Below, one piece after another: positions 16,091 to 63,861 of a stretch of 64,000 nt of DNA. The stretch's first letter is position 1; every line of letters starts with the position of its first letter. The stretch covers positions 8,476,799 to 8,540,798 of the forward strand of contig CAJINV010000003.1 in the NCBI GenBank assembly GCA_905178155.1, written 5' to 3'. The position numbers and the translations under genes are program-made. The notes under the pieces were generated by a model, which was given only the letters and a program-made list of their open reading frames with translations, searched no databases and was not told the DNA's origin. This DNA is from Amoebophrya sp. A120 (Eukaryota; Protista; Dinoflagellata).

Positions 16091-19000
16091 TCACAACTGA
16101 GCGAGGCATATCATGGCTGCGGATGTAGTCTTCCTGTGCTCAGCCGCGGTGACGGCAGCAGATTTTCGCGTTGCGCGAGAGGATTTCGTGGCCTCGCGTC
16201 GTTTTTCTCTTTCGCGCGCGAGCAGCTCTTCCGCAAACCGCAGGGTCTTGCCGAAGCGGTCGGGTGGGGTCAGTTTTGCGAGTGCCCGGCGGCACATCCT
16301 TTCGTCCCGCTCCTGTTCCCGTTCTACTTGCGTGACTAGGTGATCCACCAGATGGAGATCGATCAGTCCCTCGTCGTACTCCCCCCCGTCGACCCGAAAC
16401 TGAAACTTGCGCAGCCACCAGCAGAACTCCATGGTCTGCCGAAAGCTCCACGCGGCCACCGGCATCGCCCCACTTCTATTGCTAGCGTGACTACTAGTAA
16501 AACTTAAACTCGTAGTTCCTGCCGTAGTAGTACTGCTGTTCATCTTCTTGTTCCTTACCGTTGCCGAGCAACTGGTGCTAAAGCCGCCGCGCGGCTCGTT
16601 TGACACGACCTCCAGCTTCTCCAGCGCGCGGTGAAAGCTTTCGGCAGGTAGAAATCCGTGGGCGGCATTCTCCTCTCGGGTGAAGGCTTTACAGAGTCTC
16701 AGCACGCTGATTTTGCGGAGCCGGGTCATGTACAGCAGGCGCGTCAGCAAGCTGCGATACGGCTCGCAGACGATGCTGCCTTCATCCCTGTACTCGACGA
16801 CAATGTCGTCCTTGGTCCGGTGCTTCTGCGTCTTTGCTGGGACGACACTGGACGACAGGGAAGAACTGGGCGCTTGTTTCCCTTGCGAGGTGGACCCGTC
16901 CTCGACCTCGTTCAACAACACCCCCGCTGCTGTGTCGGCATCGTGCCACGGCCGCTTCAGGGCGGTTGGGAGCGGGAGGTAGTTCTTGTAGTCAGTCGAT
17001 GTTGCTTGTTTGATGTTGCCTTTGTTGTAGCTGCTGCTCATCCCAACAATAGTAGAGCCTGGATAATTGTTGTTTTCCTCCCGCTCGAAGGAATCTGATG
17101 GAAAAACGACGTCGACGAGCGCACTGTCGTAAGAACTCGACCATGTTGTCGGTGCTGGTGCTCCACCTGCGCCACCCCCACTAGTGGAAGAACTAGAACA
17201 GGCACCTCCGCTTGATGTTGTCGCCGCCTCCGCCTCGTCGACGCGGTAGTACAGTTTCTTTCGCACACAGTCGTCGTCTGGAGAGCTGTAGTGCAGATCT
17301 TGCGCCATCTGCGAGAGGGCAACGACTTCCACCTGGTCGCGGAAGGACCGCACCGGTGCTGCCCCATTGGGAATCTGGGTGTAGTAGCGCAGGGCCTTGC
17401 TGTTCCCCCACTGTTGCCCTGCCCACTGCCGTCGGCTCTCCAGGGTTTCGTCAACCGCGAGACAATCGAGGCATTCGGCCGGGCTGTCAAATGCAAATGT
17501 GTCTGGGTCTGGAACGATGCAAGTTTTGCCACGCAGGTTTTCCATGACCCATGAGGTCTGGAATGCGGGACCTCGCATGACAGAAGATTCTCTGAGGTCT
17601 CTAACTCTATCATGCCTACAACTCTGCATGAGAAACTTCCTCTCAACTCGGTGGAAAGTGGACAGCTTTTGGCACTTATGCAACACAGTCACAGATTTCT
17701 GTATGATTCAGATGTAGCATGACAAATCGCAAATGCAATCGTCCAGACCCAAACATATTTATTTGCATTCGATACGTGCGCCGGCGTCGCAATTCTTGCG
17801 TGCGCGTCCACGGAATCCGGTGGTCGTCGGTCTGCAGTTCTTCCAGAGCTACTCCCGCACAATTGCGGTATTCGGCCGAATATGCATCAAAAATAGTTAT
17901 CATGGATCTTGGTCGGGCAGAGCCAAAGGCAAAAGCGCTGCAGACGTCACGTCTGCTGCTGGTTGGGATAATTGCGGTCCATGTCTAGTTTTGATGAAGC
18001 TGGGGGATGGACTTGCCGAGTCTGTCAAGTAGAGCGGCCAGCGAAAGAACCTATACCCAGCTGCGTTTATACTCATTTATATTGTTTTTGCTGAGACAGA
18101 GACTGACATCGGATTGAAGTTGTCCAATGGATGCAGGATAGTTATTACAAGCTTCGGGTCTTGCTGGGACCGACCTCCTTCTTCATCTCGCGGAACCGCA
18201 TGCACGGAAGAGAGACCTTCGCATGCATCTCAGACTCCGAGCTAGCGCTCGTGGGTTACCTACATGATGTGCGCGCCAACCCTCTGCACTGTTCCAGGTC
18301 TAGATGTTGTGTTTTCAGTTGATACCCAAGTGGAGGGGTTCTGGAGAAGCAGCTGGCTTCGCGCGGCGACCGGCATTAGAGATGAACACTGGGCCTTTCC
18401 CTTTGCCAAAAAGATGGGATCTTGCCGATTCCACGAAGAATGCGACATACCTGGGGGGGCGTTATGGTTTTGGTCACAAATAACTTGCATATCGAGAAAA
18501 AAACTCCGAGGACCTCCTGAACCTGATCTTCGTAGTAGTTGCGTAAAGATTCATGCAGCGTTCATGAATGTTGACAGAGATCAGATAGGGCCTGATGCAT
18601 ACTTAGATGAAGAGCCCCTCAGGAGAAGTTTTGTGAAAACAAGCAGGACCCGTGCAGTGTCCAGAATAGTTTGCGGTGCCGTTCTCTTTGCACTTGTGCA
18701 GGATTTGCAGCTCTTTCTTGAGTGTGTTACGTGTTAGTTTGAACTTCTTTAGGAAAAGGAAATACACTAAAAGGGCGATAGAAGAATAAAGAAAAAGCGG
18801 CAGTTTGTTGAATTTCTAGTTCTAGGTAGTATCTTTATCTTGGCTGTGTAGCTGTACCTGGTAGGGGCGCAGTGGTGTACAGTCGGCGGCGATTTCCGTG
18901 TAAATTCGGTCTGTCGATGTCCCGTCCGCGGCCTTTCTTGATCAAGTGCGTGTACAGACTTCGCGGTTGCGCAGATATCGCTCCGTAATCGTACTGTGCC

Positions 19001-19467
19001 AGCGCGGAGCAGGGTCGCCGCACCCACCGCTGCTGCTTCCTGCGGGTCTCTTCATCGCCCGGAGCAGCGTCCGCGGCGTTCGTCCGCGCGTCCGGGTGTC
19101 GGGCAGGGCGCGACGAGCTTCTATTGAGGTTCTGTTGCTGATGCTGGCCATCTTCCTCTTCATATCTACTAAAATCGTGGTCGGCGTCCTCCTGGTCGCT
19201 GCTTCTCGGGGAGGAAGACGAGGAAGCCTGCTCGAGCACTTGTAGTTCGTCGTGGCCTTCGAAGCGTTCAAGCGCATCCTTGAGACCCCGCATCGCGCCG
19301 GTCCTCCGGCGGTGGTTTAGGAAGCGCCGCGTCGCTACAGCAGCCCGGCGCTCGCGGGCGCGTGCAGGGCCGCCGTTTCTCAATGCGAGAACACTCCATA
19401 CTGAAGCCGGGTGGTCGTTCATCGCTTCTATCTCCTGCTTTTCTCTATATTTTCCGCCGATCTTCAC
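16091..19467 (-). CDS. Multi-exon hypothetical protein, weak EF-hand-like segment (span approximate)
   Basis: Large exon 16091-~17484 joins in frame to the 17775-~17990 exon after removal of the IR element. RLCKAFTREENAAHGFLPAESFHRAL resembles a degenerate EF hand. Linkage to the 18.8-19.5 kb ORF is assumed. Confidence 0.5.
17485..17774. mobile_element. IR introner copy a (intron)
   Basis: TIRs TGTCAAATGCAAATGTGTCTGGGTCTGGA / TCCAGACCCAAACATATTTATTTGCATTCGATA; flanks CGGGC/CGTGC. Removal restores frame; a GT-AG alternative (17775-17484, 292 nt) is also in frame. Confidence 0.85.
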
Positions 19468-20463
19468 ACAAACATCACGTGAGCAAGTACTGAACGCTGG
19501 TGCTGGTCGTGGTGCAGCTGCTAAGAAACTAGTTAACCTAGGAAATACTCACAGAACTTGTTCATCGGTTTACTGCGGCATGAGTCATGATGACGTCGGG
19601 GCATTTCGTCTCCCATCACATACGGCGAAAAAAAGCTCGATGGATTGCGCTCTGGCGCCGGGAGACACAATAATACTACTTAACCCTGCTTCAGATGATG
19701 AAAAAATGCGCGATCCCCATCTCTCATCGTCCCCGTCACACCACTACGACCGCTCCCCCTATGCTTGCTGGGTTCACTGAAATATTAGTTCAAGTAGACC
19801 GTGCTTGGTCACCATAATATTAATCTTCATAAGCAGGAGCAATCATACATGAACAAATCTCGGTCAAATAACTAAGCGCAAGGTCGTCACTCTCGTATGA
19901 CAACCAGACTCACACTTGTTCCGGGAGAAAAAAAAACGAGACAGTTTTGCGATACCCATGAAGGAGATGAAGGACTTGATCTCTAAGAATTAGAAAAAAA
20001 AAACGAACAAGAATGTTTTCTTATTGAGGCAAGTGCAACATTCCGCTTTTCAAATTACCCAACGTGGGTCTTGAACAAGAAGAGCAAGTCTGTTCTTTAA
20101 TCCATAATCCATGACCATGTTGGTGCAGGTAGAGGTGCTTGGTGCCAAAAATGCACTAGGGTGAATGTCGACGACCCGCCTTCTTGTTTCTGCTCACAGT
20201 GTATGAATCTGCTGTTCCACCAGCACCAGTCACAGTCTGTAGCTACATTGCAATTTTTCCCCTTCGCGCGACGTTGTGGCATTCGTATTTTTGTCCTCGG
20301 TGACGGTCATGCTGGGAAGAATTTATACGACGTTACTTATATCTTGCGGAAAATAAGATAGGCATGTCGCATAACATTTATTAAACCCGCAAAGTTTTGA
20401 ATTTTTCCACTTCTCGTCTTCTTACCCGTACAGGCACAAACGATGCCATTTGTGTTCTTCGAT

Positions 20464-23400
20464 TTAGCGACTTTTTCTTGGAGCAGTACGCTTGAGTTTT
20501 TGGAAAGTGTAACTCGAATCTATTCTCCGTCTCGCAGTTCTCGCAGGGTTTTGCTTCTCATGCTTCTCCTTGTCGAAAGCCGTGCAATCGAGCCACTTCC
20601 TCAATACGTCGGTGCACTGAGATATGGAAGCGTCAGGGTTGAAATCGTCAAAGTTGAAATAATTTGTAACGCATAAAAAAATAATGTATGACCCGAGGCA
20701 CGTGTGTTCCAGAGCAGGCAAGTGAGACCGATTGCAAACCTGTTTGGGGTTAGAGCTCGAGCTGCTAAAGTAAAAGTAGCATGAGAAAATCAGTCTTCTT
20801 TGCCTAAGCAGCATGGCAAGCTGGATTTAAGGACCACCAAAGTTTGTCATGCACCGCTTAGAAATTAGGCTTAAAACTGGCATCCATTTTATGCATGACA
20901 AATCATTTCAACTTTGTCGATTTCAAACCTGACGCTTCCATATAAGATGGTGCTCGTTAACATCCACGAGAAGGACTGCTGGCCGCGGATGCTACCGCGG
21001 TACTGCAGGTAGACTTTCCGCGCGTGCGCGACGGCTGCTGGGGTAGTTGCGCTGCAACGCCGGGCGCCCCTCTTCAAAAAGCGGGGCTGCACAAGGCAAT
21101 TCAGAACGCGGAGCACAAGTCGTGGATCCGCACGATGGCGATGGGGAATTTCAGTCCACAATTGGGCAAGGAGCGCGACTTGCAAGTCTTCGCAAACGGC
21201 TGCGATTGAGAGGTCCTCCATTCCAGAAGTACTCGCCGTTTCACCAATGTGCGCGGAAGCGCTGCATTCGCCTTCCCCTTTCCTTCTGCGTGTAGCACTT
21301 TCTTGCGACGTGTTCAATGGGAATGGGGTAGAGGCAAAAGCATCGGAAAGCGTGTCCTCACAGGAGACTCCGACAGTGCACCACCCCGGGCTCGACAGCG
21401 ACAAGAGTCTTGGCTTCCTTGCGGTGTTTCCTTGCACAAATGGAACAGAGGAGCATACGCTTTCCGATGGCGCGGATGCTGTGCGACGCCGCTTTGCGAT
21501 TCTTAAGTGTGATTGTTGTTGTCCACCCGAAACTTCTGCCACGTTCTTGCACCTGAGAAGTCCCAACAAATCAGGGTGGACGGCTAGTCTTGTTTCGTCG
21601 ATGCAATCACTACGACTTCTTGTCATACCGGTAGTAGAAGTAGTTCCCCCACCAGCCTGTACAAGAGTTTCTGCTGTAGTAGAAGTCGAAGATGATGACG
21701 ATGAGCCTTCTGTTTCTACTGAAGGTGTTGAGTGGGGGCGGTGAACCGCACCTCCAACTACAGCTTCTTTCCCTTTGGGTTCGGTTACGTGCTGCGATGG
21801 TGCAGCAATATCTGGATCTGCAGGTTTGATTGGCTTGTTCCTTTGACTTCGAAGTAGACGCACCGGTGCGGCGATTGCAGCGACGAGGTGGATAAAGTAT
21901 TCCACGTCGAAGAATTGGAGCGCAGCTTGTCTGGCGTTACGACGTCTTGTAATCTACCGAATGCAAATATGTCTGGGTCTGGAACATTATGGCAAGATTT
22001 GCCGTGCGTGTATGGCATGATACATATGGTACCAGAAGCAGGCCCTGGCAGTTCGCCCTCCAGGTGGCATGACTTTCAGCTCTGCACTGCATGGCCACGA
22101 AGGGCTCCTCACCTGTAACGACTTGTTTATGCAAAAATGACGTTTATATAGTCTAAATTTCATTTTGTCATGCCTGCGGAAACGCAACACGAAGCCGCGC
22201 AAAATCAATTTTAACAAAACAAACCTGTGACCACGCTTGGGCTTGGCTGCGCATTTCAGCTGGCATCACAACTTTCTAATAGACCACGACATATTCGCAG
22301 AATGCATATCAATATCATCCGTTGCTGGTCGTGGACACTGGGCGGGGCCATCTCTCGGTCGCGTCCCCAGCTTGTGCGGCCCTCGTCATTCTCATTTGGG
22401 CGTGCGATAAGTTCGCTTTTAGGTCGTGGCTCTTCCGCCGGTTCTTCGGCCGCTGCAACTTGGTGGTCGTGCCCTTCGTCCTCGTCTTCAGGCGGAATCA
22501 CGACCCGAGCCCGAAGCAAGTCTTGGTATCCCGCGACGTAGGCCAGAAAGGGTTGGCCCGCTATTCTCAGTGCTGTAAGCAAGCAGGTACTGGCCTGGAC
22601 CGAGAAGGCCCCGGGAATGCAGTAGAGCATTCGGAAGTGAAAGCGCAGCGCATCAGCGGGCTGAAATCGACAGGCGCGGAGAATCCCCGCGAGAGTAATT
22701 GCGGACGGGTGCTTCACAAACGCAAACATGGCCAGGGGCGAGGGCAGGTGGCACCTCTGCAGAGCATGATCAGAGGTGTTCGGAGTCAGACCAACTATTG
22801 TTCCTGAAAGCGTGCCTTTATTGTGCCCGGGAGTCGAGAGCAGTTGTGCTCCAACTTCGCTGCTACACAAACGTACCTCCGACATATGATCTGCCAGAGG
22901 TGCATGTAGTGTATTTCCATCACAAACGCCATGTTGATCGACCTTCTGCTCGGTGAAGAAGTCCGCACTTATCTGCCCTGCCGGGGTGCTTGCCAACGGG
23001 CGACAGCACGCCAATAAAGTGTTCCACGTCGTATCATCTGGACTGAGATGAGATCCTGTGCAAAACAAGTATCGGACTTCTCTTGCAAAATAGAAGCAAA
23101 CAACTCAAACAAAATTTCATTCTCAGGACGGCGAGAGGAGCATTTTCCTCTGAAGAAGTAGTCACGATTTTTACTCATTATATCAGTCGCGCGGAGGTGC
23201 TGCTTCGCAGTGTCCTTCACGTCACACTTTTTTCTTTGTACATGTGCGATACTTGTGGAATATTTGCAATGCATAGGCGAAGCCCATCAATACCTGGACG
23301 TGCGCCGCCAGCTAGAAGGTCGGCGTACAACTGTTCCGCGGCGTCGTGCTTATCCGTAATTTGTGTGTGCGGGGCCTTCTTTATAGCCGCTAGTGCGATA

Positions 23401-23786
23401 TTGAAGGTGCGCACCGTTCGCGCACTACGAGGTATCCGGTGAAAGAAGTCGAAGAACTTTTCGATCGTTGGATTATTCGCTTCACTCGATATGTTGACTG
23501 GAGCACGACCCGTGGCGCTGTCTTTTCGCACAACAATGCTCGTCTCGCCTTCAGGGTCAGTCCAGTTCCAGTCTCCTAGCGCACGCCGCGCGTCGTGCTC
23601 ACGGTCACGACCTGCACCCTCTCGGTCCTCTCGTCGTCCAGGAGCAACACCGAGGACGCCGAAAGATCGTTCGGCTTGCATGGAAATCGTTGGTATCTTG
23701 GCCGCTGCACTGCGGAAGCCAGCACCAGTCCTTGTTCGCGTCAATGTTGCAGCTGCCCCTCCGGCGGCAGCAGAGAGTGCGACCAA
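20464..23786 (-). CDS. Pentatricopeptide-repeat-like protein, multi-exon (span approximate)
   Basis: PPR-like motifs RTVRTFNIALAAI...AAEQLYADLLAGGARP, PDDTTWNTLLACCR and PSAITLAGILRACR; exons join in frame across IR elements. Confidence 0.6.
20616..20948. mobile_element. Long-IR introner (second family; intron)
   Basis: ~60-bp imperfect IRs (~20620-20678 vs ~20887-20945) and a perfect GGTGC duplication (20611-15, 20949-53). Removing 338 nt joins ...LTST to DVLRKW in frame. Confidence 0.85.
21955..22314. mobile_element. IR introner copy c (intron)
   Basis: TACCGAATGCAAATATGTCTGGGTCT ... AGACCACGACATATTCGCA...ATA; flanks TAATC/TCATC. Removing 365 nt joins QQRM to TRRRNARQAALQFF in frame. The interior resembles copy a. 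Confidence 0.75.
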
Positions 23787-26700
23787 CGCAGCGTGGAAAG
23801 CCGGTAGAACATCTACGTCCGTGCGTATGGCTGGGGAGAGCCTCTCGCTCTACTCGACCTAGACGTTCTCTGGTTGTGTCTCTTGCTTAGGAATAGCAAC
23901 TGCACACATTGTCGAAATCTTAATCAAAGGGTATAAATGTCGTAAATAAACACATGCACTTGAAATTGAATGCAGTTCCTTCACTTTATTACCACTAACT
24001 TCCACATCCACGGGCGGCGGGGAAAAAACTGCGAATGCCAACCCAAAAGGAAGCGAAGGAAATCATATATAACTCAGAAAGAACGAGGCAAGTAGAGTGC
24101 TCTAGCGGCTCGCCCGAATCATACCATCCCCTACACAACGCGCAGTTCCTCGCTGACGTGGTCTTCCTCGTCCTTTCCTTTGCCTTGTGACATAGCATCC
24201 ACCTCCACTTTTTCGATCTGATGAGTGTGAGTCCTCGTCCTCCTTCGACCGTGTAATGCTAATGGTAGTTCTTTGCCTCTCGTCCACCTGCATCACACGG
24301 GCGGCGCGCTTTTGATTTTGTTCGGTGTCAGAGCGTCGATGTCCGCCATCGCCACCAGCTTCGTTCCTCAACAGCAGGGATGACAAGGGTGACGATCACT
24401 ATCCTTCAGAAACGTACACCGTGCAATTTTCCGCGGCGCGAGCGCAAAATTGTTAAGTGTGGGTGTGGCCCGTCTTCTCCTGCATGCTGTCCGTTCAGCA
24501 TGACAATTTCTTGGGGCAGATATTGCCTGGCTCGCGTTACAATGTTCCCCATCTAGCTGCTGCTGCATGTCAGATAAGCTATCATTATTTGCGACCACCA
24601 CCAGCACCACCACGTCGCGCGGCTCGACTTTGACGGTATAATCAAAATTCTTAGCCGCGCAAGAAAAAGTGCAACACAAATGCAGGCCTGCTGTAGAAGT
24701 TGTATTGGTGTACTTTTCTGCTTGATAGCCACAATTGTTCGGCCAAACGTAAAATCTGCTTTCCTACCTCATCAGAGTCGGCTGATGCCACGTGGTGTCA
24801 GTATTAGAATGTAGAAGCGCTGGCATGATGCCGCATCATTCAAGCCAAGGTCGCGATCGTCATGACCCTGAGGACAAACACGTAGTACCACTACGAACAA
24901 ATTATAGCTGGTGATCATCATGTTCATGTGCAATGCAAATGTTTTCAGGGCGAGGAGCCGCTAGCCGTGAAACGGAATTGGTCGTGAAGGAGCGGCCTCC
25001 ATCACTTTTCCGAACGTGAAGGTAACAAATTCATCTTCAGAGGAGACGTGGTGAGACGTATCTGCAGCTGAAGGCTTTATCATAGCTGCGCTGTCCCCCA
25101 TGCATACATAGCACGCCTAATGTGAGCACGAAGATTTTTGAAAGATGCGAGAAGCAAAGGCTACGTCAGCGCTGATCAGCATAATGAAGCGCACCAAACA
25201 AAGTCACCCAAGGCCAGGGCGACACATCTGACCTTGCCAGGGAGTCTGTTGCGTGGGCGGAGTTCGAGTTACCACGTCCCGATGCAATGCCTGTTACACA
25301 AGGGGCGCTGCCAAATAGCGTGTCCGTGTCCGTCCCGATATCTGGTGGTCCTGGCTGCTCCACGTCGCACCTTGTTCCTCCAGTAGCGATAGCGTCGAGT
25401 TCGCGGGCACATATCTGCACCGATTTCACTACTTCCAGCGGAGCGTAACAGGCCGGCTTTCGCACCACGCGACGGTGACTTTTCATGTGTGCTGGTGTAG
25501 AGATAGCTGACGAAGCGCCACATTTATTCATGGCTGATCCTGATCTCCAAACTCGATCATGAGAAGAAGTTGCACCAGGGGCTGCAGCACATTGACCATC
25601 ACCTTGCGCTTCAACTTTTTCTTCATGAGTAGCAAGGTGATTTTTTGGTAAAGCGAACGCGGGAGTGTCGTCCGTCGTGGCAGTGTGTTCAGGCCTCCTG
25701 GCTTTTGTAGGAGATGCTGGTCGTGGCCCCGTCTGGCCATCTGACTGGTAGCTGCAGCCAGAAAAAAATGAAGACATCGCAGACGAAACGCTGGGGCAGC
25801 TGCTGTTGTCGGCATGCGGTGGCTTGCTTGCGGAGGCTCGGTTGCCGGCGTGACCTGTAACATTGCAGCAGACTGTTTCCTTTTTGATTTTGCTCCGGCC
25901 ATAACTCATGATGCAACGGCGCAGGATGATGGCTGCGTTGCTTTTGATGCCCACGCACAGTTCGTGCTGACGCAAGTAGCCCGAGATGAATTGCTCCCCG
26001 CGACGATGGACAACGTAAGAACCTCCTCCAGCGGCAACTATATGGCCTGCTCAGGTGGAACGACGAGCCTGAACCTCACGGAAGGAACATGTATGAAGTG
26101 ATCACTACAGACTTCAAATCTGGTTCTTTGCATACATGGCAAGAAAAGCACAGGCTACCACTCCGTCGGTTGCGGTGCAGCATTGCGCGACAGACTTTCG
26201 ACGGATTTCAATGTGGGTTCATCTATCTTGGACGGCCAGAAGTTTGCCATGCTAGGCACGGACGTGTTGACTGGGCAGATACAGATCACTTTCCGCATGC
26301 TGGACCAACAGGAATTCATTGTTCCAGTCGACGCGATTGTTCCACTTCCATGTCCATCTGAGCACGCCATAAAGTCCTCCATTCTTGACACCTTCGCCGA
26401 TACAGCTTGCACGACCGCGACGTGAGGACCTGCTCGCAAATTCTCGTACGATCATAGCGATCAACCTCGTGCGGTTCCACGACGTGCTCCTGTTCCAAGG
26501 ATCCGAGCGTCACATACCTAATACTTAGTTGTCCTATCAAAAAATGCAATGTAATTACAACGGAATAAGTGTAGGCACACGCGCTTGCGTAGTTAGAGAA
26601 GGCGACGCGAGAACGCGTGAAACAATCATCAATGATTGTCCTACTTGTCGCATGTACGACATCTTCAACATCACATACACAGGTGCAACGGAGGCGGTAG

Positions 26701-30037: not shown

Positions 30038-30300
30038 ATTAACGTCATACCGTGCGGGTTGTGATTTGAATTGTGACGTATTTGGGACGAATTTGGGACG
30101 GACGGAGTTTTGAAATTCTGGACGGGTCTCGTTTGCCTCCAGTAGAACCTAGGACCTAGCTACGAGGGGGCGCCAAGATAGATTGACTACAGGTTGTGTG
30201 TGTGCGTTTTTTACCTTGTAGTGCTGTGAGAAAATTGAAAATGAAGAAACTTTTTTTTAAATATGATTATTTCACATACCGCTACCCGCCACCTGGCATC

Positions 30301-51285: not shown

Positions 51286-53381
51286 TCAGGAGGTGCGAAA
51301 CGAGTCTGCCTCCTTCTGCGTCCAGTTTCCGGAAGTGGCTGCGTCAACCCGTCGCACGTACAGCTCGGCACCGAGGGGTAGGAGCCAAGGTGCCTTTTCA
51401 TTTCTATGAAGATCAATCAAATCACAAACCGGCCCGCCGTTGTAAAAGTAGTGCTTGCGAATGCGAGCGTCCCGCCGGGGAGCATCTTGGCGGAGAGTAA
51501 TCACCATTATCTCCAAGCGACAGCGTATGTTGTTTTTCACACCGCTGGACGGCGAGTATCACGCTGTTGATGCCGCTCCTTGCCCACAAGTTCCTGCCTG
51601 CAGAGCATCTACGTTTTGTGGTGCACAGGCACAATGAAGCTGGAGGTGCGGTGACCGGGTCCAAGTTTGGTCAGGAAAGCAGGCGTGGGTCCGTGTCTTC
51701 GAGAAAATAGAGTCCGAGCTGCGGATCGCTCGCAACGGGCTCGCCGTGTGATAAAGCCTCTGCGAGCTCATGGTTGCGCTGGAAGAACTGTAGCGGAAAG
51801 ATGTGCTGCGCCCGCCGTGCCATCCGCAGGGCGGCACCCAAAGCAGCACGGGCCAGCTCCAGTTCATTGAGGTACAAGGCAGCCACACCAAGATTACTCC
51901 AGGGATAAGGGTTCAGTTCCTGACAACGAACGGCCTGCAGAAAGCTTCGCACAGCGCCGCGCGGATCGCTGTCCACTAGAAAACGAAGATAACCCTCCGT
52001 ATTATGCGCAACCCCACACAAAGACAGCACCGCAGTCGAGGACCCCCCGTGATGCGGCTCGGCATATAAAGAGGAAGCGTGTGACCACCTTCAGCACTGC
52101 TGCGGGCTCCAAGAAATGAAGCCCCACACTTCCGCTTTGATACATTCCTCTCTGATTTTCCTCGTCAAGCAAATAGAAATAAACGCACACCAACATCAAG
52201 AGCACGCCGAATAAATAAAGCGCGCAATTTCTCCATCAGCATGCAATCTGGAGTGCTTTTGGTTTGTAGTTGCACCACGAAAATAGAAGGCATAAAAAGT
52301 TGAGTTTCATTTTCTTTCGGACTATCCAGCAGCAGCCTGGCACTGGCAGATCACATGTTTCATCCCATACGGCAGCAGCTACGAGGGTAGCGATTTCCTT
52401 TCGCGCGTCTGTTAGCCGTAGTCCCTGACTAATGGATGCGAACGCGCGAGCGAGCTGGGCTTTTCGCGAGGCCTCTGATTTTCCATGACTCAACGGAAGC
52501 AGCGCGCCTTCTGCAGCGGAAAAGTCGTTCTTCTCCAACAGCTTCACGGCTTTGGCCCATGCGTCTGCGCTTTTTGCGTCTGCCCAGGGAAAGGATGGAG
52601 TTGAAAACGTTTTTCAGTGCCCTCGATCATTCCTCCTGATTCCGGGTTTCAAATTCAATTCATATTTGAAGCCCTGCTCCTCGTAGCTATTCACTTGGCC
52701 AGAAAAGCATTCATACTTCGGCTCTGCCAATTCGCATTCTAAGCCCAAATTATGGTGTGTCTCATTTGCAAAAGGGCCACAGAAGCAGCAGAACGTGATT
52801 AGCATGATGATGATTTTGCGTTTCATCTGGGGTAACCTGTCAACATGCAAAAAGAAAGCTCAGGCCGCTGCTTGATGTTGAACTGATGGCAATACTCGCC
52901 CTTCCCAGTCTCAGCGGTCTTCGTTAATCACTAAAGTTGTACTGGAAGCGGAATCTTGACGCTAAATTTGATGATGTACGTCAGGAGCAGCACTACACTG
53001 AGAAACGTACTAAGACAAAGTGGCTTGTCTTTTCCATAAGGTGGGTGAAGAAACTGGAACATGGGGGGTTGCCACTGCTTGCCGTCGCGCTGTAGCTGTG
53101 CTAGCAGTGTCAGTAGCTGTGGAAGGCCCAGGACTTCTCCTCCGGGTTGCCTGAGCCGCGAGCTCCGCAGAACGAGGGCGCACCATTGCCACAATGTCCC
53201 GCTGTCGGGCGGCAATTTCGTGCATGCTGGGCAGTGCAACTGCTGCAAAGCCGGAGAGGAAAGCAATCACGAACAAGGCAAGCAGCGAGGCTCGATCAGT
53301 TTCGCTCACTTGTGCTTTCTCGCGTCCGGCTAGCATCGTTTCTGTTGCGTCCTCTGTGCTTGCAGACGAGTCATGGATCAT
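51286..53381 (-). CDS. TPR-repeat protein, multi-exon (span approximate)
   Basis: GAVRSFLQAVRCQELNPYPWSNLGVAALYLNELELARAALGAAL is TPR-like; hydrophobic segment LLALFVIAFLSGFAAVAL near the N-terminus. Confidence 0.65.
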
Positions 53382-53758
53382 CGGCCCGTGTGTTCCTGCG
53401 GAAAAATGCTTCTTCTCTTCATAAACAGAGATCCTACTGCTACTTTCTTTTGCAGCGCAATGTATACAAACAGATCAAGCTGTTGCCTCGCAAGAACAAG
53501 ACAGTTCCTTATGGGAGGGCATGGATGCGGCTAATTTGCTAACAATTTCCGGTCATGCTGGACGTCTTTCGCCGGGGCAGCGCAGCGGCAACGTTTGTCC
53601 CTGCCTCCTGTCATGCTGGATAAGCATAGCGTTTCCACACAGCTGCCCTTTCCACTACACCTTCTTTGTGTGTCCACAAAAAACAAGAATTAGCAGTCAG
53701 AATCACTAATGAGCACGCGTTGACACAAACTCGTTTTCTTCATTTTCATTTTCTCTGT

Positions 53759-56700
53759 TTAGTAGGGGATAAGAGGCTCTTCGCATTTTCCTACGTGTCG
53801 CTCTCGCTGTGAGGACGACGACGAAAGAGTGGAAATGGTCGTGTTGGGAACCACACGTGGGGGCCGAGAAGTCGTTGCGGTCCCCGACGACGACGCGGGA
53901 CTGACGCGCTTCTTCTTGTTCTTCTCCTCTTCATCACCCTCCTGCCGCTGCGGGGCAGCGTTGGCCTGCTCCGTCCTATCTGCGGTTTCGCCGCGAGTCA
54001 TCATCATGCCCTGGCTAAGGCCTGGCACAGCCTGCTTAGTGTCGATGATGCCTGACCCTGATGTGGTCTGGTCATCATAGCTCTGGGGATAGTCTATTAT
54101 TTCGCGAAGTTTCACGTTGCGGCCCTGCTTCCCGTCATCCCTTATTTTGCCGCTTCCAACCGAGAGCGGAGCACCGGACGTCTCGGGTACTGCTCTCGCT
54201 GTTGCGCTATAACTAGAATCACGACCACCACGACCACTACCCTCCTGCGGAGAAAGTGCAGGGGCCTCGTCTTTATGCGCGCGCGGCCTGCTGCTCGTTA
54301 TTACCGCCTGGTCCACCTGCTCGGTCTGTGTGAGCGCACGGGCCTGCGAAGGTGATGAGGGCTGTACCTCTTGTTCGGCTTCTCGAGGCGAACTGTCATT
54401 TTGCGTACCGAAACTACGCACCAAAGCCGTGGCGGACTCCTCGACCTCGTCCGCAGTGGCCGTGGCACTGGCAGAATATGACTGCTGGCCAGAGCTACGG
54501 CCGGTCATTTCCTCCCCGTTCTCATCAAAATAAGTGGCGTCCCCCTCTTCTAGGAGGAAGCGATCACGTCGAAATCCAAACCCCGCTGGGGCCGTTTTGT
54601 TGAAGGGCAGCTCATTTTCCTCACTGTCGGTAGCCCCTTGGTGCGGCTGTGTATCTCACCTTGAAAACGGTCCCGGTTCCCCGCCCCCCCCCGTGAAGAC
54701 TAAAACATTGGCAGTCGTACAATTTATTTCAACAAATTGGTGCTGCAGGAGGGAAGAGCGGTCTGCTCGCACCCTGGTCATACATGCAGGCATACGAAAC
54801 CTGACGAGTACAGCGTATTTTTTTCAACCGCCGACGCAAAGAAGTCTGCGCGTCCTGATAAACAGAAACACAAGCTCAACTGCTTCGGCTATAAACTGGA
54901 GAACGCAACACCGTTGCAAATTTTTCGAAATTCTGTTCATATATTAATTTGTAGTTGCGACGCAGTTAATAAAATCATGCGAATATTAGTATTACGTGAG
55001 CGGGGGCGGGCTTGCTGGGTGCTATGCATGCCCAGTGTTACCGCCCACGCACGAACATGCTATGCCTACTGCCTAGCGGAAGCCTTTTAAACACGGACAT
55101 CGCGCAGGAACCGATTTCAACAATTTGATAGCGATTCGGTTAGGTTTACCGTGTCTGAATTCGGTGTGTCGCGGTCCTCCAGAAAGTCCTCTTTCCTCGG
55201 CAGATTTGGAGCGTTTTTCGCGATCATCTTGGTGCTACCACGCCGCGATCGTCGGCGTTGTAAATACGTGCCCAGCTGCTGCTGCGACGTACCGCTCGAC
55301 AGATCGCGTGGCGTTTCATCCAATTCGGGGTGAGGCTGGGTCTCGGACCGCTGACCTCCACTCCGTGGTAGGGGATCGGGAACAGGCAGCTGATGCTGCT
55401 GCGCCGCTGTCGAAGCGCCTGCCGTTGAAGTAGATGTGCCGGCGCCGGCCCCGAGGACCACCTCTTCGCCTGCTAGTTGTGTCGGAAGAACCTGATGAAG
55501 AAGCGGCACTGCATGGTCGGATAATGTAAATTTCGAAGATGTAGTGACGGTGGCGCTGGAAGCTTCGGTAGCAGGGGCTGTTATGGCCACCACGGCTGCT
55601 GCGCTGCCGCCCACCCAAGTGCTGGAGGTGGTGGTGCCCGGTGCTAGTAGATTCGAACTGGAAGTTACTTCTTGAGAACAGGTATAATGCACATCATGCT
55701 GCGGAGGTGGAGGTGCAGAAGGATTCCTGTAGCCAGGCAGCGCACTCCCACTGGCCGGCCCTGTGCTGCTCGAGCTCACCGCGCGCCAGTTCATATCTGT
55801 TTCGCTGGTCTGCTGGGCAAATGGCCGCGTGAGCTGGTGATTGGATGCGTTCAGCCCGGCGGCCCCCGGTTGCGCGCTGCCGAGGGCAGTCGCAGGCGCG
55901 CCACCGGTGGCAGAAACGCCCCAAGAATTCAACTGAGCAGGCCACGGATCGTATGCTTCCTGTTTGTCCATGCTAGAGGTTGTGCCCTCAACATACCAGG
56001 GCACCATCGTCGCACTGTTCGGGTACGCGGAATGAAGACTCTGCGAGTTGTTGGAGGAGCCCTGCTGGCTCGTTTGTGTCGCCGGATCGAATACTGCCGT
56101 GTAGGGCGGCCCCTGAAGCGCGTGCTATGGTCCGTTCAGGTTGTGCCACAATCTCAGGCGTCGCTACTGTGACTAGTATGTGAAACGTATATACTACGTA
56201 CATACTTATGTCAATCATTCCAAGTGAAAACTGAGGCCGGCAGTGATGGTTTGGTCTGTCCCTGTCGTGTTGTCTAAACACCGTTAGCTACCAAGATCGA
56301 TCTAGCACACTGCCCTGTTTACAACTACATAGATTACCGTCGTGCACTTTTCCTATGAAAGAGAAGCCCACGTCCGCGAATGATCGGAAGAACAGTTGAG
56401 ATTGTATGGGCACCTGAGCGAGCCATACGCGGGTCATGTGCTGCTCATGCTGAGAACGCTCCGCACCGCCTGGGCGCGGGACGGATGATAGACCGGAAGC
56501 AGGAGGAGCTGCCCCTGCAGCTAGAGCTGCGCCACTGGGAGGCGCATTCCCGGTTGCGGCAAATCCGGGCGCTGTGCCCATAACGAGAGTGCTGTATTTG
56601 TGTCCTCCTGCGTAAGTAGAGGAACCTCCGTCTAAGTGGGAGTGAGAAGATACGGCTGCTCCGTATGGCCAACTTGCCAAGTTGCTGCCGTCGTCCTGAT

Positions 56701-58635
56701 CTGGTACCTCATACTGAGCCGTCAGTTTCGGCCCCACCTCCCGGTACTGCGACGACGTGGGTGTCGGTGTCATCCCTCCTTTACTAGGGACACCATCGCG
56801 CAGTTGGTGCTGGTGCCAGCGCCCCTCACTTGTGGGCGCCTGGGCTGCAAATAAACCGGGGTGCTGGTGTGCCTGCGGGTAAGCCGAGGGCGGGGCACCA
56901 AACTGCGTGAGAGGTGGTTGCTCACTGCCTCCATCAACGCCATCAGGTCGTGGGCCACGAGCTGAAGTAGACGGGGCTCCCGCGGTGCCAGCCGTCGGCG
57001 CCAGTTGAACTCCTGTAGTTCCTACCGCTGTGCTTTCTTGAGTAGCTGCAGCCACGTCGTAGCCGACTGGCGCGGCGGATGCAGCGGCGGATGCATTAAC
57101 GTTTTTAGCTGGAGCCAGCGGTCCTGCTGTTCCTCCTCCGTTATTCTTGTGTGTTCCTCCTGCGTTATTCTTGTGTAGTTGCTGCTGCGTTTTGCTTTTG
57201 CTTGTGCTGGTCGTCGCCTGCGCACCCTTGGAGCTGCCCGTCGTGGCCCAGCTGGTCCCACCTGTGCGTTTCATGGAAGACCCTTTGGCCAACATATCCG
57301 CTGTACCCGCGGAGGCCGGAGTAGAGTAGCCGCTCGCCCCTCCGCCGCGCTGGTGCGGAGGCTGATAGGTAGCAGCTGATGCCGAGCCACCAGCTCGCGG
57401 ATCATGTGCATGATAGGGCTGTTGCGGGGGGTAATTGTACGCGTTCCAGTGCTGGTGTTGATCGTAGTCGTACTGGCCGCCCGCTGCGCCAGGACCGACT
57501 AGGCCGCCGGAGCGTGCAGACGGACCACCAACTACTGCGCGGGAGCTACTGCTGCTTGTCGAAGTTTTGGAGTTGGTGTTTTGGGGAAGGTATTGATGGT
57601 AAGGTACCTGCGCTGCACCGGCAGCTGCACCGGAATAAACGTGGGCAGCTGACTGGTCATGATTTCCGGAGTTGTCTTCAGTCATGTTCGACGACGACAT
57701 CGGCTGACCTGACACTCGCTGACCGCCGAACTCTTTTCTCGCGCTAGACTCGGCGGGGCCCGGCGGCGGCCTAGTCACCCCGGGGTGAAAGTGATTTATC
57801 TTCTCGCGCTGGTCCCCCGTCGCGTGCGGACCTCCTGGAGGTGCGGCACGTCCGGCGCCAATGTGGTCAACGTTGTGCTGCTGGGATGAAGCTGTATCAT
57901 GTGGCGCAGGTCTACTGTTCGACAACCTTGCTTTGCGCTCTTTCAAATTCAATTTTTACAACTTTATCTTCACTTAAAATATAAAGACGTAGATGCTGAT
58001 GGGAATCCGACCACGATGAAGATGATTAATATCACACGTTTGTTTACTCTTCATCGCAAAGCTGCAATAATTCAATTCACTGCGTCGATAATGCTTTCGA
58101 CGTAACACCGTGAAACAAAAAGAAACAGAATCCTGAGGCTCCTCACAGAACGGCACCAAGGCACGACCCCGGGCTCGCTTTGCGGCGCATTCTTAGCTGC
58201 CATTTTGTCGGGTAACTCTAGTACGAAATAAAAAAAGTGGAGTTCTTAGTTGTTGGAGAAGATCCTTCAGTTCCACATATGATACGCTGTGCTTCCCTTT
58301 GCAGCGGAGCCGCCAGACGAGGACGTGGTGGAAGTGAACGTTGCAGTTCCTGTGGGTGCGATCGAGTGGAATCGAGGCTGTATTCTCTCCGGTTGGTGTC
58401 CCCAGCCTCCCAGGTGCATACTGATTGCGGCGCCAGAGGAAAGCCCAGGGGTGCCACTCGACGTCTGGGAGGAGTACGCACCGGCAGCGCTGCCGACTCC
58501 CTTGGTGCCTTGATGGTGCAAGCCCAGCCCAGAGGACTTGGTTTTTCCACTGCCTGTGCCGAGGTAATCGAGCTCCTTCGGTGGAGGCGGCGACTCCGAT
58601 AGCGCCGAGGAGTCAAAATCGTTGTCATTCCGCAT
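53759..58635 (-). CDS. Low-complexity S/T/G/A/Q/P-rich protein(s), multi-exon
   Basis: Co-oriented long ORFs 58267-58635, 56288-57952, 55117-56007 and 53759-54508 separated by intron-sized gaps; no recognisable domain. Confidence 0.6.
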
Positions 58636-61600
58636 CTATGCTGCGCAAAACTAGTACAGCACACATATTAATACTCACACAAGATTTAGTTTTAGACTTT
58701 TGCTTTTCACCTACGGATCTATATATAGAATATCCACATAGTCATAGAGAAGATAGAAATATTTGAACATGATATAGATATTGTAGCATCCGATACAATG
58801 CTAAAAATGCATATTTCCCAGAAAGTGAGTCAAACATCTGTACGCCTTTGTACGTGTTCAGACAACCGTTTTCGCGCTGCATAATGCGAAAAAGTATTGG
58901 TATGACCAGCTCTGATCGCTGTCGGAGTCGGAGGCGGGAGCACCACTGCCACATATGAGAGCGCGCGGTGAAACTCGTCAAAAACTATCACGAAAGATGA
59001 CACGTCACGCAGAAAAGCGACAGTGCGCTTGCGTTCAACAATTCTAGGCATCAGACGCCTACTTTATACCCCGCCCAACGCGTCGACGAGGAGAGAGCCT
59101 GTACGTGCACTTTCCTAAGAGCGAAGCGGAAACAAGTATTAGCGCCATTGAAATTGCGATACATAGCGGAGCCTCTCGCTATGTGCCTAAACGGCGCGAC
59201 CTGTAGCCCCAGCCTTTCTCAGGCGGAGCCTGGTGGTGAGCCCAAGTGAGTTTCACCTTACCTTTGCGTGCAAGACAGGACTTTTATACATCTTGATTTG
59301 TTCTTTTTCTTAAAGTTAAATGCAAGAAATCTTTTATCATTTCCACTTTAGACTTATTTGACGACTTCTCACATCGCGCATGATCCATACCATGATGTCG
59401 GGACATGTTCGACCTGTTGTGGTTGTGACACTTCCTTTCCAAATTTCACGAAGCAGATGCAGATCGGGAATACAAGATTCATAGGCGTGCGTTGCTTTTC
59501 AAGACGAATGAATCTGCCCGCCACGGTCTCGTTTCTTTATTGTGCGTCATCAGCCCAAAAAGCTAGCCATGTTCATGCAGCAAGAATCCAGGCTAAAAGT
59601 AAGATCTATCATTGCTTTATACAGAAGCAAGTAAAACTTTCTAGCTTTTTGTAAAAACCAGGTACACAATCACACGACATGTGGTTGATGTTCAAGTACA
59701 TTATACCTATGACTCAGCCTGTTCAGGTTGCCGCCTGCATCCACGAGGTGTGCTATCCCTTGAAAAAAGTGCATCACGAAATGTACTACATGTAGACAAA
59801 GCGAGTTACTGATATTTTCATGAAAAAAGGGACGGTAAAGCAGCAAAAGATCAGGCAAAGACAGCAAAAATCGTGTGTCAGCTACTGGTGTCAACGCCTT
59901 GAGCACGATCATTACTAGCGAGCAAGTGCCAGGCCCTACTCCTGCAGAATTGGCGTGCTCACAAATGTTGACCCTCAACAGCGCGTGCGCGGCACGATGA
60001 TCATGTTCATGACCAATGACGCAGGTTACTTCTTGTTTCTTTCTTTGACGAGGTCGTGGTCGTCAGCGTCACGTGCCTCTCCGTGTTTAAATATCCGCCA
60101 AGTTGTACCACTGGAAACAAGTCTAGATGAAAGTCCGACGCAATGCAATGTTTTCGCAGGATACGCCCACCAGAGGATTTGTTGTGCATACCTTATCACT
60201 TCCTCAAACGCGACGACCTCGACTGTGACACTGTACAGCCTGATTTTATCTTCTTGCAGAATGTGCGATAGCGATAGGGAAGGCAAGGGCAGCAAACTAA
60301 ATAGTCTATAGCACTACTCGCGGTCCACCACGATCGAACTCATCATCCAAGTGCGCCTGCGCCTTTTATTATAAATTTTCATTTTGCAAGGGCAGTTGCA
60401 GTTGCATTTCGCCGCAGTTCGGAAGTTCGTCATAACAAGCACCACCAAGATGACTAGAGCTATTAGCCCTGCTGTTCTCCTTCTGCCTTAGAAATTATCA
60501 CGGTTGAGATCGTTGCAGCTGAGCCCGTTTTCATATGCTCGAAGAGGAGGAGGCAAGATCCACATCGGAGCCCGTGGGTGTGCCACTGCTTGTATATTTT
60601 TTGTAAATTTTGCGCACCATTCGATCCTCCTTGCGCTTGTTGCCCTTTATCAAGCAGAAAACTACACCCGTATAACCAGAGTTCAGTGCAAAATACCTGC
60701 GCTACAGGTGTCTAAGTACAAAAATGGAATAAATGCAAAGGTGCAATTCTTTTTGGTGCCTTATTTATCGTCATTCCTATTACGCACTCTGCATTAATAC
60801 GGTCACGCAGTGGTCACTCAAAATCAACAAACTGTACCTGCGTGACATCGTTATACCTATGCATAGTAAGCTTTCTTTTTCTACTTCTTTACTTTTTCTG
60901 GATAGTTTGTTACTTTTTCTGGCAAGGGTGTGCGTCTGCTTTCCTCTAGAATAGTCTTTCCAGCGGGCGAAAGTAGTTCTTCGGAATCACTTGAGTCGTG
61001 AGGCATATCGCCCCATGAAGTGGAGGTGGGAGGCAGCGTTGGCAATGTTCGTATCCCGATGAAAAAAAATCCCCCGTGGAAAGTGAATTCTAATCCCAAA
61101 GAACGGAATAAAATCAATAAAATGCAAATGCGTGTTCTTTCAGATTGTGGCTTTACGACGCTAGATCATGAAGACAGGACTGCACTTGGCCCGTTTATTT
61201 TTGGCTAAGTACTGGCACTTCATGATGTAGTTCGTCTTCGTACGTTCTCGCATGGAGACTACAGCTGGAAGCTTCATCACAGGAGCGTTGCGCTAGTAGG
61301 AATGCTGCTCACAACATACCAGAATTCTTGTGCTGAGCATCAGAGCAGGACTGTGGCTGCCAGGAAAGTGTAACTTAATCACTTCTAATACTAGTTTTGA
61401 TGGCATGGGCATGCAACTCCAAGATACGATCCTCCTGTTGCGATCAGAAAGGGATTTTGATTTCGCTTTGATAGTATGCGTGCCGCCCTCATGCTCGAAA
61501 GGCGGCGGCGACGGAGAGGGAACCACAGCGGACATAATTATAATTTCAATTTTGCGGGAGGAAAAATAAGCGACGGCTTTTCCACCACGAACGGTGATCG

Positions 61601-62801: not shown

Positions 62802-63085
62802 TATGCGCTGCAAACATGTCTGAGTCTGGCGGGATCAAAAATGTGACGCAGAGAGATGCTGGAAAAAAAAGTCCGCGTTGGTCTTGCATAGCAGGCAGCA
62901 AAAGATGCGAGCTCTTTGTCTCCAGGAGGGGACATTGCTTACGCAGACTACTAGGAATAGAGAAGCATCATGTGTCATGCTCGCTGAGCATTGCAGACTT
63001 GTTTCATGCAGCAGATGGTGCAAAAGCTGCGTGACAGGTGTCTGCTTTTTATTTCTTCCAGAACCAAACATCTTTGCATTTGATA
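62802..63085. mobile_element. IR introner copy h
   Basis: TATGCGCTGCAAACATGTCTGAGTCTGG ... CCAGAACCAAACATCTTTGCATTTGATA; flanks AGCCT/AGCTT. Confidence 0.8.
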
Positions 63086-63479
63086 AGCTTCCTCTGCCCA
63101 AGACGAAGACGCTCAACTGGGGTTCACCGTCAACCACCCTATTCCGCCTATTAAGAGATTTATAAATATTGCTGTATCAAAACCTTAACCTTTAGAGGAT
63201 CAATTTGTAGCTAAGAAGCAGTGCTAGAAAGAACCACCGAAAAAACAGAGTCTCGCTGCCTCATCTGATCCCCGTCTATGACGTTCTATTAGTCGGAGTT
63301 CATGTAGTATCTGTAAACATCAAAATAGTATCTCATGCAACTCAAAAGTGGGAGGACGACCGCGGTGGATCCGCTTTTCTGCCATCAAATACGGAAATCA
63401 CTCGTTGAGTGGAAGAGATGTAAATGCGATCTCCTTGCTCTTGAGATAAATTGCCGCAAACATTTATACAAAATAGGTG

Positions 63480-63861
63480 CTATACCTCTTCCAGGAAGTC
63501 CTGGACTTCTGCCGGCGTCAGCACTCGAAAAATCCCGTCATCGCGAATTATCGGGAGGAAGAAGCTCACATTGATTCCTGACTGCAACAGCAAGACATAG
63601 CAAAAATTGTTTGCAGTCATCATGCGGTAAGTATTGTGCAAGCGGCAGCAGCTGGAATTCAAATTCATAAAAAGTAGGGCAAACATGAAAAAACGGCTCG
63701 GAAAAAATTGCGATGTGACTAAAAAGAAAGTCTGTCCTGTGCATGCCCAGTCGATGCAGTCCTGAGCTTGTGAGTTCATGGCTGATTGCTTGCATACGAA
63801 CGACGCCAACTTCTATGTTCTCGGAGGTGAGCGCCCCTTCCGCATTTTCGCGCAATGGGAT
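63480..63861 (-). CDS. PSMA2: 20S proteasome subunit alpha-2, last two exons (gene continues beyond window)
   Basis: The spliced product LRENAEGALTSENIEVGVVRDDGIFRVLTPAEVQDFLEEV* matches the recalled alpha-2 C-terminal pattern (LKExFEGxMTxxNIEVG...FRxLTPxEVxDYL). Confidence 0.8.
63549..63796. mobile_element. Degenerate TAT...ATA introner in proteasome alpha-2
   Basis: Flanks CGAAT/CGAAC; removing 253 nt restores frame and alignment; IRs are weak. Confidence 0.8.

Follow-up and report, generated by a model that had tools for sequence, protein, structure and literature searches.

Introners of Amoebophrya sp. A120 appear to be cut in a fixed register relative to their terminal inverted repeats

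Introners with inverted and direct repeats (IR/DR) were described in Amoebophrya sp. A120 in 2021 (Farhat et al. 2021). The accessible part of that article (PMC7789003) gives the A120 introners IRs of 8–20 nt with the motif TAT + 7 nt + AAA and DRs of 3–5 nt (5 bp in the legend of Fig. S19), and records the same IR/DR anatomy for 15% of the canonical A120 introns. It also reports U2, U4, U5 and U6 as well as 83 of 89 spliceosomal proteins, and states that U1 was not found. The text in this part describes the sites as variable and finds no clear signature of splicing, and in the legend of Fig. 3 the position of the splice sites with respect to the hairpin is likewise given as variable, whereas the register described here (−1/+4) is very probably fixed. 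Two details of the same part point the same way as our rule, namely the N-T donors of Table S4, in which T is the second base at each of the 9 predominant boundaries of A120, and a remark placing the DR "4 nt upstream". The −1/+4 rule, its independence from the repeat and tests of orientation are not stated in this part of the text. A literature search with subscription papers outside its scope returned no published cut rule, only Farhat et al. 2021, reviews and unrelated papers, and no "Amoebophrya" rows were returned from Dataset S2 of PMC12130899.

Other systems resemble these introners in part. ILE class 12 of Polarella glacialis also has a 5-nt duplication, a donor in which the last target base is followed by the element's first base, and an acceptor provided by the downstream duplication; it requires, however, NNAGG/NAGGH (GC/GN-AG) and one orientation (10.1101/2020.10.14.339549), whereas the A120 elements seem to accept any target and both orientations. 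The targets of 44 copies showed no preference for AG|G, a weak result with many of the strand calls there being chance. In the nonconventional introns of euglenids, TIR pairing joins the ends, TSD-like repeats are present and GT-AG is absent, and the introns have pyrimidine|purine junctions and CAG/CTG at +4..6 and −8..−6 (PMC11282704). Here the end-to-end stem is found as well (21/26), but CAG/CTG and Y|R junctions are not, the motif being N|TAT...ATA-NNNN|. Fritillaria borealis likewise has genome-wide non-GT-AG introns derived from TIR/MITE elements (PMC11282704, PMC13326754); these have defined AG-AN boundaries, a divergent U2AF and the modification of U1/U6 have been shown to play a role, and U1 is present.

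The DNA analyzed here (the window) is a stretch of 64,000 nucleotides, and its elements are almost certainly the known IR/DR introners of A120. In three of three protein searches a record labelled Amoebophrya sp. A120 matched window exons at 99–100%, an alignment of the element ends shows TIRs starting with TAT + 7 nt + AAA, and direct repeats of 5 bp, within the published range, lie over the exon/intron border. Organism label, IR and DR sizes, IR motif, the presence of many families and removal from RNA agree with the accessible part of the published description (PMC7789003). The sequence-only reading, which had proposed this identity, is thus borne out by TIR motif, direct repeats, copies, non-GT-AG removal and host. 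What is added here beyond the known introners is the cut register.

That reading had listed eight elements (290, 360, 293, 265, 324, 459, 284 and 248 bp, starting at 17485, 21955, 27995, 31004, 44133, 44703, 62802 and 63549). All were located and their lengths reproduced, and the claimed identity of the flanking 5-mers (4/5 to 5/5) was seen at 8/8. Allowing up to three mismatches, the TIR core occurs 10 times in the window and not once in each of 20 shuffles. Seven elements were said to share this core, which holds by edit distance (left, right: 17485, 0,3; 21955, 0,3; 27995, 4,2; 31004, 0,0; 44133, 4,7; 44703, 3,2; 62802, 2,3; 63549, 9,8), 44133 being marginal. Unlike the TA..TA ends, 17485 has TG at one end. 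Element 63549, counted with the family, lies outside it by its edit distance and has neither core nor end pairing. The surrounding exons gave 11 weak PDB matches, all to proteasome alpha-2 chains (best E 0.078), and the element likely sits in the last exons of a proteasome alpha-2 gene. Two sets of bounds had to be corrected: at 21955 by 6 nt, the annotated intron having 359 nt and not 365 with its end at the inner TAT at 22308, and at 31004 by 4 nt, the spliced unit being 31008–31268 plus 5 nt, which makes 266 nt and not 270. The interiors of only 4/8 elements (17485, 27995, 31004, 62802) could be aligned to other family copies and so be oriented; 31004 is oriented opposite to 17485 and 27995. 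The eight elements are a minority, three annotated genes alone holding 26 non-GT-AG introns. An internal GCATGAC motif is enriched (14 occurrences vs 0.63 expected) and present in 8/20 interiors; as a branch point it was rejected, occurring on both strands and at several distances, and it is more likely a subterminal transposon motif.

In one record set of a second assembly we found at least 148 distinct paired copies in at least 152 loci. Among the matches listed, 144 of 148 copies measure 244–293 bp, the 5-bp target duplication has an identity of 0.95 in 143 copies (115 perfect) vs 0.25 for a 6-bp duplication, and 136/143 copies have TAT..ATA ends, a pattern partly imposed by the script. For 6 of 189 TIR ends there is no near partner. 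Short, bounded by TIRs, with a constant TSD and at least 148 copies, the elements have the features of MITEs, i.e., non-autonomous TIR transposons. An autonomous transposase with these TIRs was sought and not found in three long copies (631–1255 bp), which have no stop-free frame above 137 codons, or in the 45 of 105 long ORFs scanned for a transposase domain. The suggested resemblance to IS3EU fits with respect to the TA..TA termini with TIRs, as in IS3EU/GingerRoot, but membership is unsupported, the duplications there being usually 6 bp (PMC10045372) and here 5 bp. Viral contigs contain one exact copy of the core; it lies within coding sequence, 1.3 kb of which showed no second TIR to pair with it, and was judged to be a chance match.

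The elements had been claimed to act as non-canonical introns, and contig skips and published gene models agree with this. The contigs of set X1, which is RNA-like (its RNA origin is a guess), leave out 298, 248, 536 and 266 nt at four elements, while contigs of X5 enter or cross the elements, and the published gene models take out 21955, 44133 and 44703. The evidence for the eight elements consists of contig joints for two, piece ends for two, annotation for three (one overlapping) and frame only for 62802 and 63549; between 41700 and 64000 removal is indicated by annotation or frame alone (44133, 44703, 62802, 63549). From the raw RNA runs X9 and X10, 1 and 0 reads matched the window. At 17485 an X1 contig piece starts at 17479, the contig running 131 letters further, and taking out the element plus 5 nt opens 70+298 codons. 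At 31004 the X1 pieces cover 29995–31003 and 31270–32259. The sequence between the joint at 28480 is flagged "not known"; the junction repeat there is chimeric, with positions 1–2 from the upstream and position 5 from the downstream copy. The A120 gene models were built from BLAT-aligned transcripts because GT-AG mappers failed, and GT-AG is impossible in 26/31 annotated introns of three genes (P0001, P0004, P0005). Transcripts using nearby GT/GC-AG sites would have spoken against the claim: 27995 has no in-frame GT/GC-AG pair within 10 nt, and at 44133 a 330-nt GT..AG option is present but unused, the frame being conserved with the A25 orthologue, whereas at 62802 a GC..AG pair of equal length fits too, the sole such case among the eight. 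The features are collected in the table.

Table. Introners and other non-canonical introns of the window, with the observations on their removal
Feature	Position	Strand	Removal
TGCAAAT-family introner, 290 bp	17485..17774	-	predicted intron 17480-17775 region, 295 nt, GT..CC under -1/+4
TGCAAAT-core introner	21955..22308	-	annotated intron, 359 nt (P0005 threading); X1 piece starts 21949
TGCAAAT-family introner, 293 bp	27995..28287	-	298 nt spliced; X1 joint 27989->28288, depth 143
TGCAAAT-family introner, inner TIR-consensus unit, 261 bp	31008..31268	- (from neighbours)	266 nt spliced
Degenerate introner, CitMHS/SLC13-type transporter gene (Pfam)	44133..44456	-	329-nt intron, P0001 threading
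Introner, CitMHS/SLC13-type transporter gene	44703..45161	-	464-nt intron, annotation
TGCAAAT-family introner, 284 bp	62802..63085	-	splicing suggested by frame
Old TAT..ATA intron without family core or end pairing	63549..63796	-	splicing suggested by frame
Young introner, other TIR family, 57-nt arms	20623..20942	-	325-nt intron; overlooked by the sequence-only reading
Introner, other TIR family	27591..27833	-	248 nt spliced; X1 joint 27585->27834
TAC..ATA introner	28480..29010	-	536 nt spliced; X1 joint 28475->29012, 30 letters on short side
Further TAT..ATA transporter introns	41912-42360, 43046-43370, 43473-43783, 43805-44091, 45845-46106, 46179-46597	-	P0001 annotation
P0004 gene, 13 annotated introns	52065..61473	-	12 non-GT-AG; N-TA donor compatible with all
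P0005 gene, four more non-GT-AG introns	23052..25183	-	three permit only the -1 register

In the proposed register the 5′ cut lies 1 nt before TA and the 3′ cut 4 nt past the far end (N-TAT...ATA-NNNN). This was predicted before the annotated proteins were examined. Of the 31 annotated introns of P0001, P0004 and P0005, 30 allow the −1 register, and 4 allow no other. Among the 21 introns anchored at both ends −1 fits 20, −2 fits 14, 0 fits 12 and −5 fits 6; for random cuts a fit of 12.3 is expected (simulated p 1e-5), and when the two elements from which the prediction arose are set aside, −1 still fits 18/19. In the canonical register the donor has T at +2 and A at +3 in 30/31 introns vs 4.6 expected by chance, a conservation that is partly built in, since the TA anchor was sought near each junction. 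The register's one exception is 41912–42360, where only a −4 cut is permitted. The last four intron bases look random and an AG one base away is bypassed at 44133 and 43473. By raw counts, +1 is G in 11/21 introns vs 5/21 at the twin exonic base. Support for the register comes mainly from annotation, and annotation and X1 may share source data. Four informative junctions could be aligned with the A25 orthologue, and at three of them (43805, 43473, 43046) the orthologue carries the residue specified by the base that the register discards, which could reflect annotation error or variable cuts.

The direct repeat does not set the cut, because its identity is about 60% (0.60) in the 23 anchored annotated introns of the window and because a perfect repeat is ignored at 31004. 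There a perfect 5-mer repeat flanks 31004–31268, yet the cut obeys the inverted repeat (266 = 261 + 5), and the TIR geometry outdoes the repeat at 21955 (359) as well. Introns with 0–2/5 repeat matches are still removed in frame.

Pairing of the ends (z ≤ −2) was found in 21/26 non-canonical vs 0/5 GT-AG introns. It is not significant in 5/26 non-canonical introns and in 63549, and 27995, when folded as a whole intron, does not do better than its shuffled versions (z −1.06). One NRAMP gene (L119) contains five copies oriented −,+,+,+,−, and a 475-codon frame runs across all of them only after removal of element plus 5 nt; both orientations are thus found within one reading frame. Of the close element pairs, 9/22 are in opposed orientation. 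Both orientations work, as had been surmised from the symmetric ends, and this conclusion rests on L119, the close pairs and the window copies; strand calling with a codon model is noisy (21/25 correct for window introns, a set overlapping the training data), and so is the open-frame orientation test (18/96 vs 6–9/96). The further proposal of a symmetric structure-guided excision agrees with the retained end pairing but not with the cut, which is asymmetric.

We consider it probable that these short TIR elements are cut at −1/+4 by a relaxed spliceosome that takes its position from the end-to-end hairpin, and the catalysis itself is likely to be spliceosomal. Insertion, in either orientation and with a 5-bp stagger, would be the work of a transposase whose gene lies elsewhere, and the two element ends are predicted to pair in the pre-mRNA. 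The donor N|TAT would consist of the last target base and the first bases of the TIR, and would share its register with the GTAT/GTAA donors of canonical introns in these genes, with +1 relaxed. The 3′ cut would be set by the distance from the TIR end and not by AG or repeat homology; a conserved A at −7 is a candidate, if speculative, branch point. Removal of element plus 5 nt would restore the mRNA length, the upstream copy supplying repeat positions 1–4 and the downstream copy position 5; both copies would then be free to drift. The position of the 5′ site in the GTAT/GTAA register points to a modified spliceosome over a symmetric structural excision. The leaning of +1 to G, the published U2, U4, U5 and U6 with 83 of 89 spliceosomal proteins, and the 5-nt geometry that class 12 of Polarella shares, there with an NNAGG duplication, also speak for a spliceosome. 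Of the U2-type features, the +2 U/+3 A of the donor is present in the canonical register and GT/GC...AG boundaries are absent. In spliceosome chemistry +1 G and 3′ AG are near-invariant; losing both would therefore be a large step, which speaks against a spliceosome.

It is possible, though rather unlikely, that a non-spliceosomal endonuclease/ligase or a domesticated transposase-like factor instead takes out the hairpin, cutting at set distances from the stem, as has been proposed for the euglenid introns (PMC11282704). Such an enzyme would have no need of GT-AG and would suit the seemingly random last four bases, the persistence of end pairing while the repeats decay, the independence of orientation and the failure to find U1 (PMC7789003). 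Against it stand the donor exactly in the canonical GTA register, the leaning of +1 to G and the splicing of some introns without detectable pairing; moreover, the IR/DR anatomy of 15% of canonical A120 introns (PMC7789003) suggests one machinery, and tunicate non-canonical introns use a modified spliceosome. We regard it as doubtful that most introns are cut by a machinery with a hairpin ruler, maybe non-spliceosomal, that needs neither splice-site dinucleotide nor U1; if so, any TAT..ATA element would be a length-neutral intron, wherever and whichever way round it had inserted.

A cut sliding within the direct repeat, the −1 signal being aligner or annotation bias, would accommodate the exception at 41912, the A25 residues at three junctions and the Fig. 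3 legend of Farhat et al. (PMC7789003). It is improbable, as mismatches that alter an amino acid leave only −1 at four introns and bracket it elsewhere, and the joints of X1 contigs at 28480 and 31004 agree with −1 independently of annotation. Hairpins between short repeats are classic substrates for template switching, but that the skips are artefacts of reverse transcriptase switching templates at direct repeats, or DNA-level empty sites in an X1 set not recorded as RNA, is very improbable: the perfect repeat of 31004 predicts 270 nt and 266 are observed, introns with hardly any repeat match go in frame, an element left in place brings stops into most frames, the alignment of the spliced transporter with its orthologue runs through the junctions, and X5 contigs contain the elements.

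For more than 60% of the introns of this genome, removal involves no GT-AG and, it seems, no U1. A fixed −1/+4 geometry gives sharp tests, namely of the branch site (A at −7), of the base kept in each mRNA and of the effect of shifting the stem, and it offers a rule for correcting gene models. It would explain how a transposon spreads through coding exons whatever the target or orientation, and because each mRNA would be chimeric for two independently drifting repeats, it may provide a route to protein change biased toward the junctions.

All eight elements of the sequence-only reading are present at their starts (17485, 21955, 27995, 31004, 44133, 44703, 62802 and 63549 of the window), with lengths of 248-459 bp and flanking 5-mers agreeing at 4/5 or 5/5 positions. 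The core of their terminal inverted repeat (TIR), which begins TGCAAAT(A/G), has 10 matches in the window at up to 3 mismatches and none in 20 shuffles. As had been claimed, seven elements carry this core at one end within 4 edits; in the exception, 63549, it is absent within 4 edits at either end. A motif-free scan of the window revealed further TAT..ATA elements with unrelated TIRs, and the eight therefore belong to a broader class. Two more introner families, each with numerous relatives among the fetched loci, lie at 20623-20942 (arms of 57 nt, 91% complementarity) and 43046-43370.

Three single-exon protein searches each returned a 99-100% identical record labelled as Amoebophrya sp. A120. 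For this strain the available text of Farhat et al. (2021; PMC7789003) puts the share of non-canonical introns above 60% and describes introners with inverted repeats of 8-20 nt, direct repeats of 3-5 nt and the inverted-repeat motif TAT + 7 nt + AAA; U1 and a transposase were not found there, and the removal mechanism was left open. The family end TATCAAATGCAAA conforms to this motif, so the system is already known; with the protein matches this bears out the identification as Amoebophrya IR/DR introners.

The proposal that the elements act as non-canonical introns holds for 27995 and 31004, skipped in X1 (a contig run, RNA only by guess), and for 21955, 44133 and 44703, removed by the gene models. 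Among the matches listed for window 14500-34400, X1 pieces also end at 17479, 21949 and 20943 with their contigs carrying on past these points, and contigs of X5, a run holding the elements, enter or traverse them. Threading of the annotated proteins P0001 (a CitMHS/SLC13-type transporter), P0004 and P0005 on the window gave 31 introns, 26 of them without a GT-AG option; according to the available text of PMC7789003, the annotated A120 proteins were built from BLAT-aligned transcripts. Across the junctions the spliced transporter lines up with its A25 orthologue, relative to which the exon between two introners at 43371-43472 has a 22-residue insertion. For 62802 and 63549 only the reading frame points to removal as introns. 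A low-complexity inverted-repeat element (47183-47912; 79% identity over 773 nt to L044:4308-5067, a fetched locus) lies within a 1620-nt GT-AG intron.

Elements and intervals removed in X1 (among the matches listed) or in the gene models
Evidence	Position in window	Length (nt)	Basis
X1 skip	27586-27833	248	joint
X1 skip	27990-28287	298	joint
X1 skip	28476-29011	536	joint, flagged uncertain
X1 skip	31004-31269	266	piece table
Annotated intron	44133	329	protein threading
Annotated intron	44703	464	protein threading
Annotated intron	21955	359	protein threading

From the X1 contigs a 5′ cut preceding the TIR by 1 nt (-1) was predicted, ahead of its test on the annotated proteins; these permit it in 30 of the 31 introns and force it in four (60648, 24803, 24400 and 23826). 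Of the 21 non-GT-AG introns that have element+5 length and are anchored by TA or CA ends, 20 are fitted by -1, 14 by -2, 12 by 0 and 6 by -5, with 12.3 fits expected for random cuts (p ~ 1e-5); once 20623 and 21955, which helped to form the prediction, are set aside, -1 fits 18/19. The ten remaining introns (five GT-AG, five with decayed 3′ ends) all permit -1. The 25 fitting introns give the consensus N-T-A-T-(G/C) ... (G/C)-A-T-A-N-N-N-N, and position -7 is A in 24 of them. In the part of Farhat et al. (2021; PMC7789003) consulted, Table S4, T is second in all nine predominant A120 boundaries. Two sites are natural experiments separating TIR from direct repeat: at 31004 a perfect 5-mer surrounds a 265-bp unit, yet the joint corresponds to the inner 261-bp TIR unit + 5, and at 21955 the gene model takes the inner TAT, where the repeat agrees at 2/5 positions, not the outer one with 4/5. 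At 44133 and 43473 an AG lying a single base from the site is passed over. These data indirectly support a fixed -1/+4 register.

Against it stands 41912-42360, alone among the annotated introns in not allowing -1: its annotated Gly demands a cut at -4, 4 nt ahead of the TIR, and no other is permitted. At 43805, 43473 and 43046 in the transporter (43046-44091) the A25 residue is that coded by the repeat base which the gene model discards. Junction-biased protein change or an error in the annotation may lie behind these matches, and selection for G at +1 could account for two of the three. Annotation and X1 may also not be independent of each other.

Relative to family references, 17485 and 27995 face one way on the minus strand and 31004 and 62802 the other; for the remaining four elements no orientation was obtainable against these references. 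X1 shows splicing of the oppositely oriented 27995 and 31004 alike, the strand at 31004 being judged from its neighbours. At a further locus (L119) an NRAMP gene is broken by five copies oriented -,+,+,+,-, and taking out element+5 five times yields a 475-codon frame spanning all of them; if 3, 4, 6 or 7 nt are taken instead, none of the three longest frames covers more than three copies. Among close pairs 9/22 are opposed. The suggestion of removal independent of orientation holds.

One collection scan gave at least 152 loci with family copies, the 80 listed all from one record set, and at least 148 distinct paired copies, 144/148 of 244-293 bp; copies were chosen by exact core and the sample is thus young. 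Across the 143 copies whose ends are regular, the flanks show an identity of 0.95 when read as a 5-bp duplication (115 perfect) and of 0.23-0.29 when read as 2, 3, 4, 6, 7 or 8 bp. Of the supposed likeness to IS3EU transposons the TA..TA termini stand as the sole match, since duplications there are usually 6 bp according to the text available (PMC10045372). A search for an autonomous copy among fetched loci, long copies and 45 of 105 long ORFs found none. Three long copies (L008:946-2200, L019:632-1465 and L039:3862-4492; 631-1255 bp, without long ORFs) perhaps hold nested insertions or captured DNA. GCATGAC/GTCATGC, enriched in interiors across unrelated TIR families and recurrent in position within the TGCAAAT family, is a candidate shared transposase-binding motif. 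A dispersed direct repeat of ~36 nt (29113, 30003, 32230, 33916, 35442, 37041 and 38115) surrounds the intron-poor ORFs of 29-39 kb, which have paralogues elsewhere.

Also counting against the proposed cut model, 5/26 non-GT-AG introns show no significant end pairing, nor does 63549. Folding of the whole intron is significant for 44703 (z -3.86), but neither 27995 (z -1.06) nor 63549 (z +1.52) reaches significance. Elsewhere in the window, palindromic repeats of ~40-50 nt, alternating in orientation, form an array at 1-400, and at the end of an 1833-codon ORF without a Pfam match lies a near-perfect 128-nt hairpin (2906-3033; 64-nt arms, 97%).

The elements carry a 5-bp duplication, lie in both orientations and at the tested sites are removed with 5 additional nt; their repeats decay while pairing is mostly kept. 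A transposase would have spread them, hairpins may form in vivo, and catalysis would fall to the spliceosome with branching possibly at A -7. We favour a relaxed spliceosome because the donor position coincides with that of the GTAT/GTAA donors in five canonical introns of the same genes, because core snRNAs, with the exception of U1, have been reported (Farhat et al. 2021, PMC7789003, available text), because Polarella class 12 shares the geometry, albeit with canonical letters (bioRxiv 10.1101/2020.10.14.339549, in part), and because tunicates provide a precedent (PMC13326754, in part). A non-spliceosomal hairpin nuclease/ligase, discussed for euglenids in the text available (PMC11282704), is a real rival to the relaxed spliceosome.

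The -1/+4 register is not stated in the accessible parts of the literature found, including PMC12130899, PMC12005148, PMC9860276 and PMC11453091; figures S19-S23 of Farhat et al. may show it. The elements themselves are known, and the cut rule added here is probably useful.
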